Below, piece after piece: positions 1 through 4,923 of a stretch of 4,923 bases of DNA; positions within the stretch are counted from its first letter, which is position 1; the number at the start of each line of letters is the position of its first letter. Made by a program: the position numbers and the translations under genes. The notes under the pieces are model-generated. The model had not been told where the DNA came from, did no database searches, and worked only from the letters and a program-made list of their open reading frames with translations. The stretch is from a virus. Lineage: Duplodnaviria > Heunggongvirae > Uroviricota > Caudoviricetes. The DNA lies in the IMG/VR virus record IMGVR_UViG_2541047861_000004. One strand, given 5' to 3'.

Positions 1-2
1 GC

Positions 3-197
3 ATCAATGGTCTTTACAAAGCGGAGGTAATACACCGTAAGAGCTGGAAAAACCGTGCAGAAGTGGAACTGGCCACACTCACGTGGGTGGACTGGTATAA
101 CAATCGACGATTGCTGGAAAGGCTGGGCCATACTCCTCCGGCAGAAGCAGAAAAAGCTTATTATGCTTCCATCGGAAACGATGATCTGGCAGCCTGA
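3..197 (+). CDS. IS3-family transposase OrfB, C-terminal fragment (5' end outside window)
   Basis: Translation INGLYKAEVIHRKSWKNRAEVELATLTWVDWYNNRRLLERLGHTPPAEAEKAYYASIGNDDLAA, stop TGA at 195-197. The WxxWYNNRRxxxxLG motif is typical of the C-terminal end of the integrase-like catalytic domain of IS3-family transposases. Confidence 0.85.
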   Translation: MNGLYKAEVIHRKSWKNRAEVELATLTWVDWYNNRRLLERLGHTPPAEAEKAYYASIGNDDLAA

Positions 198-214
198 GTT
201 CACAGATAAAACAC

Positions 215-239
215 TCTCCAGGAAACCCGGGGCGGTTCA
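215..239 (+). repeat. Terminal inverted repeat (IRR) of the IS element
   Basis: tctccaggaaacccggggcggttca; reverse complement TGAACCGCCCCGGGTTTCCTGGAGA, starting TG as IS3-family ends do. The partner repeat lies outside the window, so this cannot be confirmed here. Confidence 0.6.
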
Positions 240-290
240 GACCTCTCCGCGCCGCCATGATTGTCTTTCTCCTGATGCAGGAGGCCAATA

Positions 291-485
291 ATGCTTAGCC
301 CATCTCAATCCCTTCAATACCTGAAAGAAAGCATAGAGCGGGCTTCAATGTGCACAGAGTGGATTCTATCTAGGTTTAGCGCATACAGAAGATTGCCGGT
401 AAAGGGCATGCCAAGCAAGTCGATGCTGCATATGCAAAAGAATGCGCGCTGGAAGGTATGGCGAGAACACAGGTTATGTGGCTGA
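291..485 (+). CDS. Hypothetical 64-aa ORF with strong Shine-Dalgarno; possibly a chimeric or spurious ORF at a mosaic joint
   Basis: ATG at 291 preceded by AGGAGG (280-285) in the spacer window. I do not recognise the product. Its 3' part overlaps the ybcO-like remnant in another frame, so both cannot be genuine. Confidence 0.3.
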   Translation: MLSPSQSLQYLKESIERASMCTEWILSRFSAYRRLPVKGMPSKSMLHMQKNARWKVWREHRLCG

Positions 486-508
486 AAGAGGGGGTTATTA
501 AGGCGTGA
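380..508 (+). pseudogene. ybcO: ybcO-like (DUF1364) 3' remnant with no start codon
   Basis: Frame-2 translation [42 protein letters not shown] ; the last ~27 residues match my recollection of the YbcO C-terminus. In-frame stop at 377-379 and no ATG/GTG start between it and the conserved part. Its stop (506-508) overlaps the rusA GTG start (505-507), as in the DLP12 ybcO-rusA junction. Confidence 0.45.
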
Positions 509-867
509 ATACCTACAGCATCACATTACCCTGGCCTCCGAGCAATAATCGCTATTACCGCCATAATCGCGGGCGCACGCACGTCAGCGCAGAGGGGCAG
601 GCATACCGCGATAACGTCGCCCGAATCATTAAAAACGCAATGCTGGATATCGGCCTGGCTATGCCTGTGAAAATCCGCATTGAGTGCCACATGCCGGATC
701 GCCGTCGCCGTGACCTGGATAATCTGCAAAAAGCCGCTTTTGACGCACTCACTAAAGCAGGTTTCTGGCTGGATGATGCTCAGGTCGTTGATTACCGCGT
801 TGTGAAGATGCCTGTTACCAAAGGTGGGAGGCTGGAACTGACCATCACCGAAATGGGGAATGAATGA
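505..867 (+). CDS. rusA: RusA Holliday junction resolvase (120 aa), GTG start
   Basis: Translation [120 protein letters not shown] matches RusA as I recall it. The residues I recall as catalytic (D70, D72, D91) and K76 are present at those positions. Start is GTG at 505. Confidence 0.93.
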
Positions 868-1004
868 TGTTTGAGTTTAATATGGCAGAACTTCTTCGCC
901 ACCGCTGGGGGCGTCTGCGCTTATATCGTTTCCTCGGTTCTGTTTTGACCGATTACCGAATACTGAAGAATTACGCCAAAACCCTGACAGGAACAGGAGT
1001 ATGA
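864..1004 (+). CDS. ylcG: YlcG-like small protein (46 aa), overlapping the rusA stop
   Basis: ATGATG at 864-869 overlaps the rusA stop (865-867). Translation [46 protein letters not shown], matching my recollection of DLP12 YlcG. It is below the length cut-off of the supplied ORF track. Confidence 0.7.
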
Positions 1005-1089
1005 AGTCAGAGATAACAATCAACTAATACTGTTTTGTTGATTTTTGCTTGTAATTGGCGTTCTGGTCTGATTTTTGTGGAGTAAGTTG

Positions 1090-1473
1090 ATGCGTGATAT
1101 TCAGATGGTTCTTGAGCGTTGGGGTGCGTGGGCGGCTAATAATCATGAAGATGTGACCTGGTCGTCCATTGCCGCCGGTTTTAAGGGATTAATTCCTTCA
1201 AAAGTAAAATCTCGCCCGCAATGTTGTGACGATGACGCGATGATCATTTGCGGGTGCATGGCCCGTCTGAAAAAGAACAACAGCGATTTACACGATTTAT
1301 TAGTAGATTATTATGTATGTGGTATGACATTCATGTCACTGGCAAGTAAGCATTGCTGCTCGGATGGTTATATCGGGAAAAGGTTACAGAAGGCTGAGGG
1401 CATAATTGAAGGGATGTTAATGGCATTAGATATCCGGTTAGATATGGATATCGTTGCTAATAATTCTAATTGA
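1090..1473 (+). CDS. quuD: Q-family late-gene antiterminator (QuuD-like, 127 aa)
   Basis: Translation [130 protein letters not shown] at 1090 preferred over TTG at 1075 because GGAG (1079-1082) sits 7 nt upstream of it. Position between rusA and the lysis genes, plus the Cys-rich pattern, fits a Q antiterminator. Confidence 0.85.
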
Positions 1474-1494
1474 TATGCAATTGTTTACTAAAAG

Positions 1495-1524
1495 TTATTA
1501 AAAATGGGGCGTGGAAACGCCCCC
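1495..1524 (-). terminator. Intrinsic terminator for the porin transcript (minus strand)
   Basis: Minus-strand RNA reads GGGGCG-UUUCCA-CGCCCC followed by AUUUUUAAUAACUUUU (6-bp GC stem at 1506-1511/1518-1523, U-tract toward lower coordinates). On the plus strand the same hairpin is followed by CAAAAUAAAGGG, so it is unidirectional. Confidence 0.65.
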
Positions 1525-1661
1525 AAAATAAAGGGTAATATATAACAGAAGGTTTATATAGTAAGAAGCAAGGTAGTGCTTCTAAAGGAAGTGGCTTGAG
1601 GGCTCCACTTATATGTTGCGGAGGCAAAGCCTCCCGCAACATATCTTTTTCGTAAGTCAGA
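1498..1661 (-). ncRNA. ipeX: IpeX-like regulatory 3' UTR of the porin gene
   Basis: About 164 nt of untranslated sequence between the nmpC stop (1662-1664) and the minus-strand terminator. The inhibitor-of-porin-expression RNA IpeX was mapped to the untranslated region between the nmpC/lc stop and its terminator in DLP12 and PA-2. Assignment is by position and established knowledge, not sequence comparison. Confidence 0.5.
1611..1650 (+). terminator. Intrinsic terminator, plus strand, downstream of quuD (tR'-like candidate)
   Basis: atatgttgcggagg-caaag-cctcccgcaacatat forms a ~14-bp stem with one bulged C, followed by cttttt (1645-1650). On the minus strand the hairpin is followed by AAGUGGAG, so it is plus-strand specific. 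Confidence 0.6.
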
Positions 1662-2744
1662 TTAGAACTGATAAACCAGACCTACAGCGACGATGTCGTC
1701 GGTATCAATACCAGCTGTTTTGGTAAACTTACTATCGTCAATTAAGTTGATTTTGTAATCAACAAAAGTGGACATGTTTTTATTAAAGTAGTAAGTAGCA
1801 CCGACATCGACATACTTGACTAAGTCTCGGTCACCATGAACACCAAGGTCTTTACCTTTTGACTGAAGGTAAGCAACAGATGGACGCAGACCGAAGTCAA
1901 ACTGATATTGTGCTACTGCTTCAAAGTTTTGTGCTTTGTTTGCAATATGGTTATTACCAAAAACGGTCATATTCTGAGTTTCAGAATATGTGGTAGCCAG
2001 ATAGATATTGTTCGCATCATATTTCAGGCCTGCAGCCCATACTTCCGCATTTTTGCCGGAGGCATTGAATTTGCTCTTACCATAGGCGACCTGACCGTCA
2101 GTGCGATCTGATTTAGCATAGGTTGCACCCACGCCGAATCCTTCATACTCATAAGTAGTGGAGAAACCGAAACCATCACCATTGGCTTCAGTTACGTCAG
2201 TGCGGTCATTTTTACCCTGATACTGAGCAGCAAAGTTCAGGCCATCGACCAGACCAAAGAAGTCGTTGTTACGATAAGTTGCAACACCAGTAGTGCGACC
2301 AGTCATGAACACATCTGTTTGGGTCCAGGTATCACCACCGAATTCTGGCAGAACGTCAGTCCACGCACCGATGTCGTATGCTACACCGTAGTTACGGCCG
2401 TAATCGATTGAGCCGTAATCACCAAATTTCAGGCCTGCAAATGCAAGACGGGTTTTGTCTTTGGAAGAACCTTGAGATTCAGCACGGTTGCCTTTGAATT
2501 CATATTCCCACTGACCGAAACCAGTCAGTTGATCGTTGATTTGGGTTTCACCTTTGAAGCCAAGACGGGCATAAGTAGTATCACCATCATCTGCATCATT
2601 AGAGGAGAAGTAGTGCTTGGCATTAACTTTCCCGTATAGATCCAGCTTGTTACTGTCTTTATTATAAATTTCAGCTGCCTGAGCAGACATCGCCATCAGT
2701 ACTGATGCAGCTACAGCAGAAATTGCCACTGTTAATTTTTTCAT
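1662..2744 (-). CDS. nmpC: Outer membrane general porin of the NmpC/Lc/OmpC family, apparently intact (360-aa precursor)
   Basis: Translation from the internal Met gives signal peptide [23 protein letters not shown] then mature [17 protein letters not shown]...; motifs [25 protein letters not shown] and C-terminal GLVYQF align with OmpC as I recall it. The ATG at 2804 in the ORF track is rejected because it would place 20 residues ahead of the signal peptide. Confidence 0.92.
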
Positions 2745-2900
2745 TGTACGCCCTTTTTTTGAACTATTATTAAAAAATGATGTCACTGCGCGATAAATAT
2801 TCATCTAATCAATGTGATTATTTCAAGATGTAAGTTTTAGTTTCTCATTTAATTTGTGAAGTAGATCTCTATTTTTATCTGAACCTTTTCTATCTAATCC
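2745..2900 (-). promoter_or_regulatory. Porin gene promoter/5' control region with OmpR-box-like motif
   Basis: AT-rich. Minus-strand sequence corresponding to plus coordinates about 2808-2827, CTTACATCTTGAAATAATCA, resembles the OmpR site consensus as I recall it (TTTACATTTTGAAACATCTA), roughly 60-85 nt upstream of the ATG. No clean sigma-70 -35/-10 pair could be fixed by eye. Confidence 0.3.
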
Positions 2901-2955
2901 TATTCATGGCTCTTGTCTGAACAAAAATAAATCTATTAGCTAATTTATATTAATG

Positions 2956-2973
2956 GCACTTATTTATAAGTGC
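2956..2973. repeat. Perfect 8-bp inverted repeat with 2-bp spacer
   Basis: gcacttat-tt-ataagtgc, about 210 bp upstream of the porin start within the AT-rich intergenic region; candidate dimeric protein-binding site. Confidence 0.5.
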
Positions 2974-3112
2974 TCTATAATTCTTTAGCTTAATTTAAAC
3001 AAACTAAAAATAACATCGGAAATTATTAACTGGTTATTTGTTGAAGTTTTCTTATGCATTTGTGGTGGTGTTTTGAACACTCGGTGGCATTCTCACAAAT
3101 ATCATTTAGTAG

Positions 3113-3126
3113 TTTACGTACGTAAA
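3113..3126. repeat. Perfect 14-bp palindrome tttacgtacgtaaa
   Basis: Self-complementary over its full length, 45 bp upstream of the 3171 terminator hairpin and about 210 bp upstream of the holin start. Confidence 0.5.
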
Positions 3127-3170
3127 AAATTGGTTATGCTGTTAAGAGTGGTTACTTCGTCACACAGCTT

Positions 3171-3203
3171 AAACCCGCCGTCGAGCGGGTTTTTCCATTT
3201 TTT
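3171..3203 (+). terminator. Strong intrinsic terminator, plus strand, upstream of the lysis cassette
   Basis: aaacccgc-cgtcga-gcgggttt forms an 8-bp stem (3171-3178/3185-3192) followed by ttttccatttttt. On the minus strand the hairpin is followed by AAGCUG, so it is plus-strand specific. Confidence 0.7.
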
Positions 3204-3332
3204 GAGTCTCGATATTAGCTGATAACCCAATACCTGAGTTATTCACTGACTCCGAATCTGTTACGTTTCTGCCTTTATTGCGATACGTAGTATCCCCTTA
3301 ATTTACACCCGCTTTGTCTGCGAGGTGGGGTT

Positions 3333-3548
3333 ATGAAATCCATGGATAAGTTAACAACGGGTGTCGCCTATGGTACCTCAGCAGGTAGTGCCGGGTACTG
3401 GTTTTTACAGTTGCTCGATAAAGTCACGCCCTCACAGTGGGCGGCAATAGGTGTGCTGGGTAGCCTGGTATTTGGCCTGCTGACGTACCTGACAAACCTT
3501 TATTTCAAGATTAAAGAAGATAAGCGCAAGGCTGCGAGAGGTGAATAA
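3333..3548 (+). CDS. essD: Class II holin (phage 21 S-type pinholin, 71 aa) with dual-start motif
   Basis: Translation [71 protein letters not shown] closely matches S21 as I recall it. Met1-Lys-Ser-Met4 dual start, two transmembrane segments, charged C-terminus. RBS gaggtgggg at 3322-3330. Confidence 0.92.
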
Positions 3549-4045
3549 TGCCTCCATCATTACGAAAAGCCGTTGCTGCTGCTATTGGTGGCGGAGCAAT
3601 TGCTATAGCATCAGTGTTAATCACTGGCCCAAGTGGTAACGATGGTCTGGAAGGTGTCAGCTACATACCATACAAAGATATTGTTGGTGTATGGACTGTA
3701 TGTCACGGGCATACAGGAAAAGACATCATGCTCGGTAAAACGTATACCAAAGCAGAATGCAAAGCCCTCCTGAATAAAGACCTTGCCACGGTCGCCAGAC
3801 AAATTAACCCGTACATCAAAGTCGATATACCGGAAACAATGCGCGGCGCTCTTTACTCATTCGTTTACAACGTGGGTGCTGGCAATTTCAGAACATCGAC
3901 GCTTCTTCGCAAAATAAACCAGGGCGATATCAAAGGCGCATGTGATCAGCTACGTCGCTGGACATATGCTGGCGGTAAGCAATGGAAAGGTCTCATGACT
4001 CGTCGTGAGATTGAGCGTGAAATCTGTTTGTGGGGTCAGCAATGA
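3548..4045 (+). CDS. rrrD: SAR endolysin (phage 21 R-type lysozyme, 165 aa)
   Basis: N-terminal signal-anchor-release segment [20 protein letters not shown], then a lysozyme domain with E35, D44 and T50 at the positions I recall for the R21 catalytic triad. Start ATG overlaps the holin stop (taATG at 3546-3550). Confidence 0.93.
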
Positions 4046-4503
4046 ACAGAGTAACCGCGATTATCTCCGCTCTGGTTATCTGCATCATCGTCTGCCTGTC
4101 ATGGGCTGTTAATCATTACCGTGATAACGCCATTACCTACAAAGCCCAGCGCGACAAAAATGCCAGAGAACTGACGCTGGCGAACGCGGTAATTACTGAC
4201 ATACAGATGCGTCAGCGTGATGTTGCTGCGCTCGATGCAAAATACACGAAGGAGTTAGCTGATGCGAAAGCTGAAAATGATGCTCTGCGTGATGATGTTG
4301 CCGCTGGTCGTCGTCGGTTGCACATCAAAGCAGTCTGTCAGTCAGTGCGTGAAGCCACCACCGCCTCCGGCGTGGATAATGCAGCCTCCCCCCGACTGGC
4401 AGACACCGCTGAACGGGATTATTTCACCCTCAGAGAGAGGCTGATCACTATGCAAAAACAACTGGAAGGAACCCAGAAGTATATTAATGAGCAGTGCAGA
4501 TAG
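4042..4503 (+). CDS. rzpD: Rz i-spanin (153 aa)
   Basis: Translation [153 protein letters not shown] is near-identical to lambda Rz as I recall it. ATG at 4042 overlaps the endolysin stop (ATGA); the GTG at 4030 is rejected. Confidence 0.93.
4262..4444 (+). CDS. rzoD: Rz1 o-spanin lipoprotein (60 aa), embedded in the +1 frame of Rz
   Basis: Translation [60 protein letters not shown] has a lipobox (VVGC) and a proline-rich mature part, near-identical to lambda Rz1 as I recall it. AGGAG lies about 8 nt upstream. Confidence 0.88.
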
Positions 4504-4534
4504 AGCTGCCCATATCGATGGGCAACTCATGCAA

Positions 4535-4828
4535 TTATTGTGAGCAATACACACGCGCTTCCAGCGGAGTATAAATGCCTAAAGTAATAAAACCGAGCAA
4601 TCCATTTACGAATGTTTGCTGGGTTTCTGTTTTAACAACATTTTCTGCACCACCACAAATTTTTGCTGCATCGACAGTTTTCTTCTGCCCAATTCCCGAA
4701 ACGAAGAAATGATGGGTGATGGTTTCCTTTGGTGTTACTGCTGTAGGTTTGTTTCCAACAGTAAACGTCTGTTGAGCACATCCTGTAATAAGCATTGCCA
4801 GAGCGGCAGAAAACAACATTTTTTTCAT
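4535..4828 (-). CDS. borD: Bor lipoprotein (serum-resistance-associated, 97 aa)
   Basis: Translation from the internal Met: MKKMLFSAALAMLITGCAQQTFTVGNKPTAVTPKETITHHFFVSGIGQKKTVDAAKICGGAENVVKTETQQTFVNGLLGFITLGIYTPLEARVYCSQ, with lipobox LITGC, matching lambda Bor as I recall it. AGGA lies 8 nt upstream of this ATG; the longer ORF starting at 4876 is rejected. Confidence 0.9.
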   Translation of the reverse strand: MKKMLFSAALAMLITGCAQQTFTVGNKPTAVTPKETITHHFFVSGIGQKKTVDAAKICGGAENVVKTETQQTFVNGLLGFITLGIYTPLEARVYCSQ

Positions 4829-4923
4829 CTTATTATCCTGCATTGTTAAAAACGGCAGAATCCTATGTGACAACAATTAAACGATAGTTAAATGGATTGA
4901 TGAAAATTAAAACTACACAGGTG

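Follow-up and report, generated by a model that had tools for sequence, protein, structure and literature searches.

An intact NmpC/Lc-type porin gene lies as a cassette between the antiterminator gene Q and the predicted late promoter of a lambdoid prophage of Escherichia coli

A porin gene of the NmpC/Lc type stands between the late antiterminator gene Q and the lysis genes of a lambdoid prophage, on the strand opposite to both. Two questions arise at this locus: which porin is encoded, and whether Q-dependent late transcription has to cross the gene in the antisense direction before it reaches the lysis genes. The prophage NmpC/Lc porin gene has been known since the 1980s. According to the literature, the Salmonella counterpart of NmpC is OmpD.

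We analysed one stretch of 4923 bases, called the window here. Open reading frames, Pfam matches and RefSeq comparison identified it as the late-control and lysis region of a lambdoid prophage (Table 1).

Table 1. Features of the window (position 1 is its first base; the late promoter unit and its parts are predicted)
Feature	Position	Strand	Basis or remark
IS3 right end	1-240		adjoins truncated ninX
ninX and DUF1364 remnants, truncated	between IS3 end and rusA		
rusA	505-867	+	
ylcG	864-1004	+	
Late antiterminator Q, QuuD type, 127 aa, Q21 family	1090-1473	+	PF06530, E=7.7e-54
Porin 3'UTR, IpeX-type	1495-1661	minus	homologous to the DLP12 IpeX region
15-bp hairpin (one bulge) followed by CUUUUU	1611-1650	+	inverted repeat
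Porin CDS, NmpC/Lc type, 360-aa precursor	1662-2744	minus	Pfam Porin_1, E=1.9e-151
Porin upstream region, AT-rich	2745-3109	minus	about 28% G+C (flanks about 50%)
Cognate late promoter unit (pR'-tR'), predicted	3113-3205	+	conservation, phage 21 layout, Cappable-seq
-35 TTTACG	3113-3118	+	inside palindrome TTTACGTACGTAAA
Spacer, 16 nt	between -35 and -10	+	invariant CGTAAAA
-10 TATGCT	3135-3140	+	
Second -10-like hexamer AAGAGT	3144-3149	+	
Late start	3147	+	
Late terminator stem	3171-3192, T run to 3205	+	
S21-type pinholin, dual-start	3333-3548	+	PF04971; RefSeq essD
SAR endolysin	3548-4045	+	PF00959; RefSeq rrrD
Rz	4042-4503	+	PF03245; RefSeq rzpD
Rz1, embedded in Rz	4262-4444	+	PF06085
Bor/Iss lipoprotein gene	4535-4828	minus	

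Over positions 238-4923, identity is 100% to E. coli FY26 and 99.9% to the viable phage ev017, and the whole window matched the chromosomes of CFT073 and other ExPEC/APEC strains with a score of 100.0%. Compared with FY26, CFT073 and ev017, the window lacks 38 bp beside the IS3 end. The FY26 prophage has lost the N-terminal part of its integrase and its replication genes to three IS3 copies and is therefore probably defective. Several further observations were made on the neighbouring genes. The Q protein matched the Q21 structures with E=4e-8. The 90%-identity protein cluster that contains Q also holds many entries named 'porin, partial', its representative included, which looks like a clustering or naming artefact. 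The holin begins with an S21-type dual start (3333-3344, MKSM...), comparable to the annotated antiholin/holin pair of phages 21 and 434B, and the N-terminus of the endolysin resembles a SAR signal-anchor. The Bor-family lipoprotein gene is named iss (increased serum survival lipoprotein Iss) by RefSeq in FY26 and CFT073; alongside the porin, it is another conversion gene of this prophage arm.

The porin reading frame is open from end to end. It runs on the minus strand from an ATG at 2742-2744 to a stop codon at 1662-1664 (1083 nt, 360 codons plus stop), and neither an internal stop nor a frameshift was found across it. The match to Porin_1 (PF00267) covers the full profile (positions 1-337 of 337). 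Residues 24-360 aligned end to end with the solved chains of OmpC, OmpK36, PhoE and OmpF (E 1e-137 to 1e-111), all of which are 16-stranded trimeric porins. A 23-residue signal peptide is encoded at 2676-2744, identical to the 23 codons annotated in the PA-2 lc record, and the mature protein begins with AEIYNKD. The protein also carries LPEFGGD, which contains the PEFGG motif of L3, and ends in ...VGLVYQF with a terminal Phe. Some annotators use an alternative ATG at 2804, giving a reading of 380 aa in which 20 more residues simply precede the signal peptide; the 360/365-aa start was chosen in RefSeq and in the PA-2 record. Judged by its sequence, the product is a 16-stranded outer-membrane channel of the OmpC/OmpF class with a Sec signal peptide. 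The earlier note had described a complete general-porin gene with signal peptide and C-terminal Phe, located between Q and the holin on the opposite strand, and all of this was borne out.

The porin was then compared with its relatives. K-12 NmpC was rebuilt in silico by removing IS5B from the RefSeq pseudogene, Lc was taken from the PA-2 GenBank record, and OmpC, OmpF and PhoE were taken from MG1655. The window porin is 90.7% identical to the rebuilt NmpC and likewise 90.7% identical to Lc, in agreement with the NmpC/Lc type assigned to it earlier; between NmpC and Lc the identity is 98.9%. The identity to OmpC, PhoE and OmpF is 62.9%, 62.5% and 58.6%, respectively. The window porin shares with these host porins the fold family, the AEIYNKD N-terminus, PEFGG and the C-terminal YQF. 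It differs from them in that the identity is only 59-63% and in that the host genes are core-chromosomal, whereas the window porin is prophage-borne.

The divergence from NmpC is unevenly distributed. Residues 1-148 are identical to both K-12 NmpC and PA-2 Lc, and 33 of the 34 differences from K-12 NmpC are confined to six short segments. These segments coincide with the indel-rich stretches that separate OmpC, OmpF and PhoE, which are the surface loops. This restriction of changes to loop segments suggests exposure to selection at the cell surface. At the DNA level, the identity to K-12 and PA-2 is 64-85% over 1701-2300 and 91-100% in the 5' half and the flanks, which indicates that the allele is a mosaic rather than uniformly diverged. 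The pattern suggests that the loop-encoding 3' two-thirds of the gene may have been swapped by recombination. In E. coli LR-24 (NZ_AP027494.1, 4221473-4222004), a segment matching window 2580-3110 at 92% lies beside a gene annotated as phosphoporin PhoE; there the porin 5' end and upstream region appear to be joined to another porin allele.

Two known prophage porins provide the closest comparison. In PA-2, the lc gene (GenBank J02580) also lies between Q and S-R-Rz in the same orientation, so the PA-2 lc arrangement named in the earlier note was confirmed in both gene order and direction. Its upstream region, which includes the annotated CRP site, and its downstream spacer share 92-95% identity with the window. 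Unlike Lc, the window porin is five residues shorter and has the diverged 1701-2300 segment. DLP12 of E. coli K-12 shares the order rusA-ylcG-quuD-nmpC-essD-rrrD-rzpD-borD. Its IpeX-encoding spacer between Q and the porin is 94% identical (178/190), and its late promoter element is identical. In contrast to the window gene, which is uninterrupted and carries another loop allele, the K-12 nmpC (b0553) is split by IS5B 58 nt before its stop, just as had been claimed for an IS5 disruption.

The cassette is widespread. With positions 1474-3112 as the query and at least 80% of this length required for presence, it was found in 2464 of 5426 complete E. coli genomes. It occurs at 99% identity or more in 655 records, Nissle 1917 included. 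The exact 360-aa protein was found on at least 1000 contigs in a large protein collection, and about 36 sequenced lambdoid phages carry the porin cassette between Q and S. An intact NmpC/Lc porin gene is therefore an already known, ordinary and very common accessory gene; after several decades of acquaintance and with nearly half of the complete E. coli genomes carrying it, the intact copy is not news.

To locate the late promoter, we scanned species-representative genomes that bear this Q. The scan covered 30 loci from E. coli, Shigella, Trabulsiella, Citrobacter, Pantoea, Xenorhabdus, Providencia and Morganella. Among these, the porin was present only in three E. coli loci with a full-length Q match (127 aa, 96% identical), and the cassette was absent from 22 loci of the same Q family in eight genera. 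The motif TTTACG(T/A)(A/T)CGTAAAA, which spans the -35 and the spacer and whose conservation extends from E. coli as far as Xenorhabdus and Morganella, lay at -13 to 28 nt from the Q stop in 20 of the 22 porin-less loci, whereas in the window it stands 1639 nt past the Q stop. It was found as one copy per locus in 32/32 loci (for example L013, 5410-5500). In the window it occurs once, at 3113 on the + strand, even when 3 mismatches are allowed (0 expected). In the alignment of the loci, TTTACG, CGTAAAA, TAnnnT and a second nAnnnT hexamer were invariant, as was the 16-nt spacing; in the porin-less loci the second hexamer lies 3 nt beyond TAnnnT. Another 30-50 nt on, there is a G+C hairpin with a T run, which a strict scan detected in 17 of 24 loci, the window and Citrobacter braakii included.

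The porin-less relatives also delimit the inserted DNA. Homology of the Q region to them stops at 1448 (codon 120 of Q) and resumes at 3110 with 85-89% identity. In E. coli ECMA0423 the order is Q, promoter unit, four tRNA genes and an S21-type holin, and the segment directly after Q is 88% identical to window 3110-3194. This break in homology, together with the presence of the promoter unit only at 3113-3205, indicates that about 1.66 kb (1449-3109) is inserted between Q and the late promoter. Besides the porin with its 3'UTR and regulatory region, the inserted segment includes the final seven codons of Q. A search for flanking direct or inverted repeats that would point to an insertion mechanism gave none. 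As expected of a moron, it is absent at the same site in relatives, has its own terminator and deviates in base composition. A locus of Citrobacter braakii (L019, 5653-7619) holds other minus-strand cargo of 2.3 kb at the same junction, with a gene for a multi-pass membrane protein of 345 aa and two small ORFs (106 and 132 aa). The finding suggests that the junction of Q and pR' may be a recurrent insertion site.

The layout of the unit resembles that of phage 21 (Q21, pR', QBE, SDPE, tR'; curated record). Both Q proteins belong to PF06530. In phage 21, whose pR' has been studied by experiment, 7 nt separate the Q stop from the -35, and the QBE lies within the 16-17-nt spacer, comparable to the conserved spacer element of the window. 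A -10-like element at the start site, where phage 21 has its sigma-dependent pause element, a terminator within about 50 nt, and an S21-type pinholin and SAR endolysin downstream are common to both. The differences are a 1.64-kb porin cassette between Q and the promoter in the window, a spacer palindrome TTTACGTACGTAAA in place of the phage 21 direct repeats ATTGAGCA/AATGAGCA, and a Q of 127 aa versus 162 aa. In phage 21, tRNAs follow, and in the window there are none. The palindrome-bearing unit is probably the cognate pR' and Q-binding site of the QuuD-type branch of the Q21 family. In the literature examined, no description of a promoter-terminator unit next to a QuuD-type Q was found.

A CRP site annotated in the 1986 PA-2 record (PA-2 1067-1087) maps to window 3147-3167, AGTGGTTACTTCGTCACACAG, within the leader that the late promoter unit transcribes and that is conserved. 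Distant genera retain its dyad GTGnT...nTCAC, in part through paired changes. The site may be a Q/late-leader element and not a CRP site of the porin.

Start sites of K-12 were also consulted. To move coordinates from U00096.2 to U00096.3, we used an offset that we take to be +777 (IS1 in crl plus one base in ylbE) and that could be 1 nt off. The Cappable-seq list for MG1655 (PMC4782308, supplementary file 1, U00096.2 coordinates) gives + strand starts in the region at 572979, 573406, 575093, 575453, 576081, 576452, 576907 and 576971. The start at 576452 (score 1.7) falls on window 3147, +/-1 nt, seven bases past TATGCT, and this is the start base that the comparative model predicts. A pR' at 3113-3205 is thus predicted from comparative conservation, the analogy to phage 21 and one weak Cappable-seq peak. 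Another candidate, ATGGCA-17-TATAAT at 2953-2981 on the + strand, was the sole automatic match to the sigma-70 consensus; it was rejected as pR', as it is not the element conserved beside Q and no Cappable-seq start lies near the corresponding K-12 position (U00096.2 576293).

These results bear directly on the claim that Q-dependent late transcription must cross the porin antisense. The claim did not stand: the promoter unit was found only beyond the porin, and the K-12 start maps there too. With the cassette lying between Q and the late promoter, Q-dependent transcription can proceed without crossing the porin. The gene is not downstream of pR', as a member of the late operon would be. Moreover, all candidate starts for the lysis genes lie past the porin gene, so none of them requires the crossing.

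A different start has been favoured for DLP12. Q-responsiveness was reportedly assigned there, in work of Rueggeberg and colleagues from 2013 and 2015, to a sigma-E promoter, which falls near window 2793. This assignment disagrees with the choice of pR' at 3113. A sigma-E promoter near 2793 would also be downstream of the porin, and thus does not rescue the antisense-crossing claim. When the primers of the published '-121 to +650' DLP12 reporter were mapped, the +1 of essDp came to lie near window 2793, and a sigma-E-like GAACTA-N15-GTCACT at 2761-2787 (+) coincides with the published essDp. This motif is within the porin cassette and is absent from the porin-less relatives.

The AT-rich region upstream of the porin holds further signals. 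The CRP-type site at 2852-2872 is the PA-2 misc_binding feature 1363-1383 mapped onto the window. In a relaxed promoter scan of the minus strand, the best guess for sigma-70 was TTGAAA (2826-2821), an 18-nt spacer and GAATAT (2802-2797), which would put the porin start near 2790 and CRP at about -72. On the + strand, the strongest K-12 Cappable-seq start of the region (576081 in U00096.2, score 90.2) maps to about window 2777. It lies 33 nt beyond the porin ATG, is directed away from the porin, and has a -10 TATTAT at 2765-2770. Downstream of it, no + strand ORF of 20 aa or more was found before 3054 and no terminator before 3171, which points to an unannotated non-coding RNA of about 420 nt. 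This transcript may run divergently through the AT-rich spacer, in a geometry reminiscent of micF-ompC.

At its other end, the gene has a structured 3'UTR. According to the literature, IpeX is a 167-nt RNA from the phage porin promoter that forms part of the porin transcript and represses OmpC/OmpF; the nmpC mRNA is a target of RybB. The earlier note named the replacement of host porins, which is known from published work, but not IpeX, the mechanism described for it. We set the limits of the 3'UTR from the published IpeX length and the terminator, so they are approximate. The region folds into four hairpins (-53.6 kcal/mol, z=-6.1), the last being an intrinsic terminator with its stem at 1506-1523 followed by AUUUUUAAU on the minus strand. 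An Rfam scan of the whole window with E up to 1 gave two matches, both at chance level, and none over the IpeX region. The term-seq supplement (PMC7815308) had no entry for essD, nmpC, quuD or ipeX. Read on the + strand, the hairpin at 1611-1650 (-22.6 kcal/mol, z=-4.9) may act as a terminator for unmodified transcription that has passed Q; in the other direction it belongs to the IpeX-type 3'UTR.

Other readings of the locus have to be weighed against these data. The porin could lie inside the leader of the late operon, with pR' right after Q and Q-modified RNA polymerase transcribing the porin antisense to reach S. Such a position of pR' is found in lambda, phage 21 and most lambdoid phages, and the + strand hairpin with its U run lies where tR' might be expected. 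However, the interval 1474-1661 contained no copy of the Q-family element even with 3 mismatches allowed, the element being found at 3113-3145 instead, and no + strand sigma-70 match at the scan threshold; in K-12, Cappable-seq listed no + strand start between the Q stop and the nmpC stop. We regard this placement of pR' as very improbable. It might also be held that the porin is simply the host OmpC, as the RefSeq label 'ompC: porin OmpC' says. The protein does score 521 bits against NCBIfam NF007841 'porin OmpC' (cut-off 484), and RefSeq uses the name because that model was passed; yet NF007841 is a subfamily model and not an equivalog. The far higher identity to NmpC and Lc than to K-12 OmpC, and the location inside a prophage between Q and S, leave the OmpC identity with practically no credit.

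It is harder to dismiss that the gene, although intact, is not expressed and has no phenotypic consequence, being a quiescent or H-NS-silenced relic of a defective prophage riddled with IS3. The low G+C content upstream is typical of silenced DNA, and the near-identical FY26 prophage has lost genes to IS3, as described above. The title of a 1998 paper by Prilipov calls nmpC 'quiescent' in E. coli B. On the other hand, NmpC protein has been detected in CFT073, at higher levels in urine and at 37 C, although two nmpC-like genes exist there and 'c1560' could be either. CFT073 carries the identical porin accession WP_000737271.1. The perfect conservation of the ORF on its many contigs and the limitation of changes to surface-loop segments also speak against silence, which we consider unlikely.

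The reading we prefer is that an intact NmpC/Lc porin allele forms a self-contained cassette of about 1.66 kb (1449-3109) between Q and pR'-tR', outside the Q-dependent late operon; we put its probability at about 0.88. The cassette brings along an AT-rich regulatory region with a CRP site, a structured 3'UTR and a terminator of its own, and is oriented against rightward phage transcription. In the lysogen, going by published work on PA-2 and DLP12, the porin would be transcribed from its own promoter. Its 3'UTR would give rise to IpeX RNA, and OmpC and OmpF would be lowered, which is the published route of host-porin displacement; porin and IpeX would jointly shift the porin set of the outer membrane. 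Q-modified polymerase would start about 400 nt beyond the porin start codon and read away into S-R-Rz. Upon induction, a head-on encounter with the porin gene would be possible only for early pR transcription that continues beyond Q, and the + strand hairpin with its U run may limit this by halting unmodified polymerase.

The residual novelty of the locus is an apparently Q-family-specific promoter element, its conflict with the sigma-E essDp model reported for DLP12, and the strong, unannotated divergent transcript from about 2777; none of the three featured in the earlier note. We tentatively propose, at somewhat less than even odds, that QuuD-type Q uses a distinct palindrome embedded in the promoter, that the Q/pR' junction is a cargo point sparing accessory genes late transcription, that the essDp model needs revisiting, and that a divergent transcript starts at about 2777. 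If the palindrome is indeed the site of QuuD-type Q, the sigma-E 'essDp' model of Q action in DLP12 would have to be reconsidered.

In conclusion, our results correct the architecture of this prophage arm: the cassette lies between Q and the predicted late promoter, and prophage induction would not send Q-dependent transcription antisense across the porin. Under the RefSeq label 'OmpC', the NmpC/Lc identity of the protein and its relevance are concealed. When expressed, an NmpC/Lc porin together with its IpeX 3'UTR alters outer-membrane permeability, phage and colicin receptors and surface antigens, and the lineages concerned are ExPEC/APEC, such as CFT073, Nissle 1917 and UTI89.
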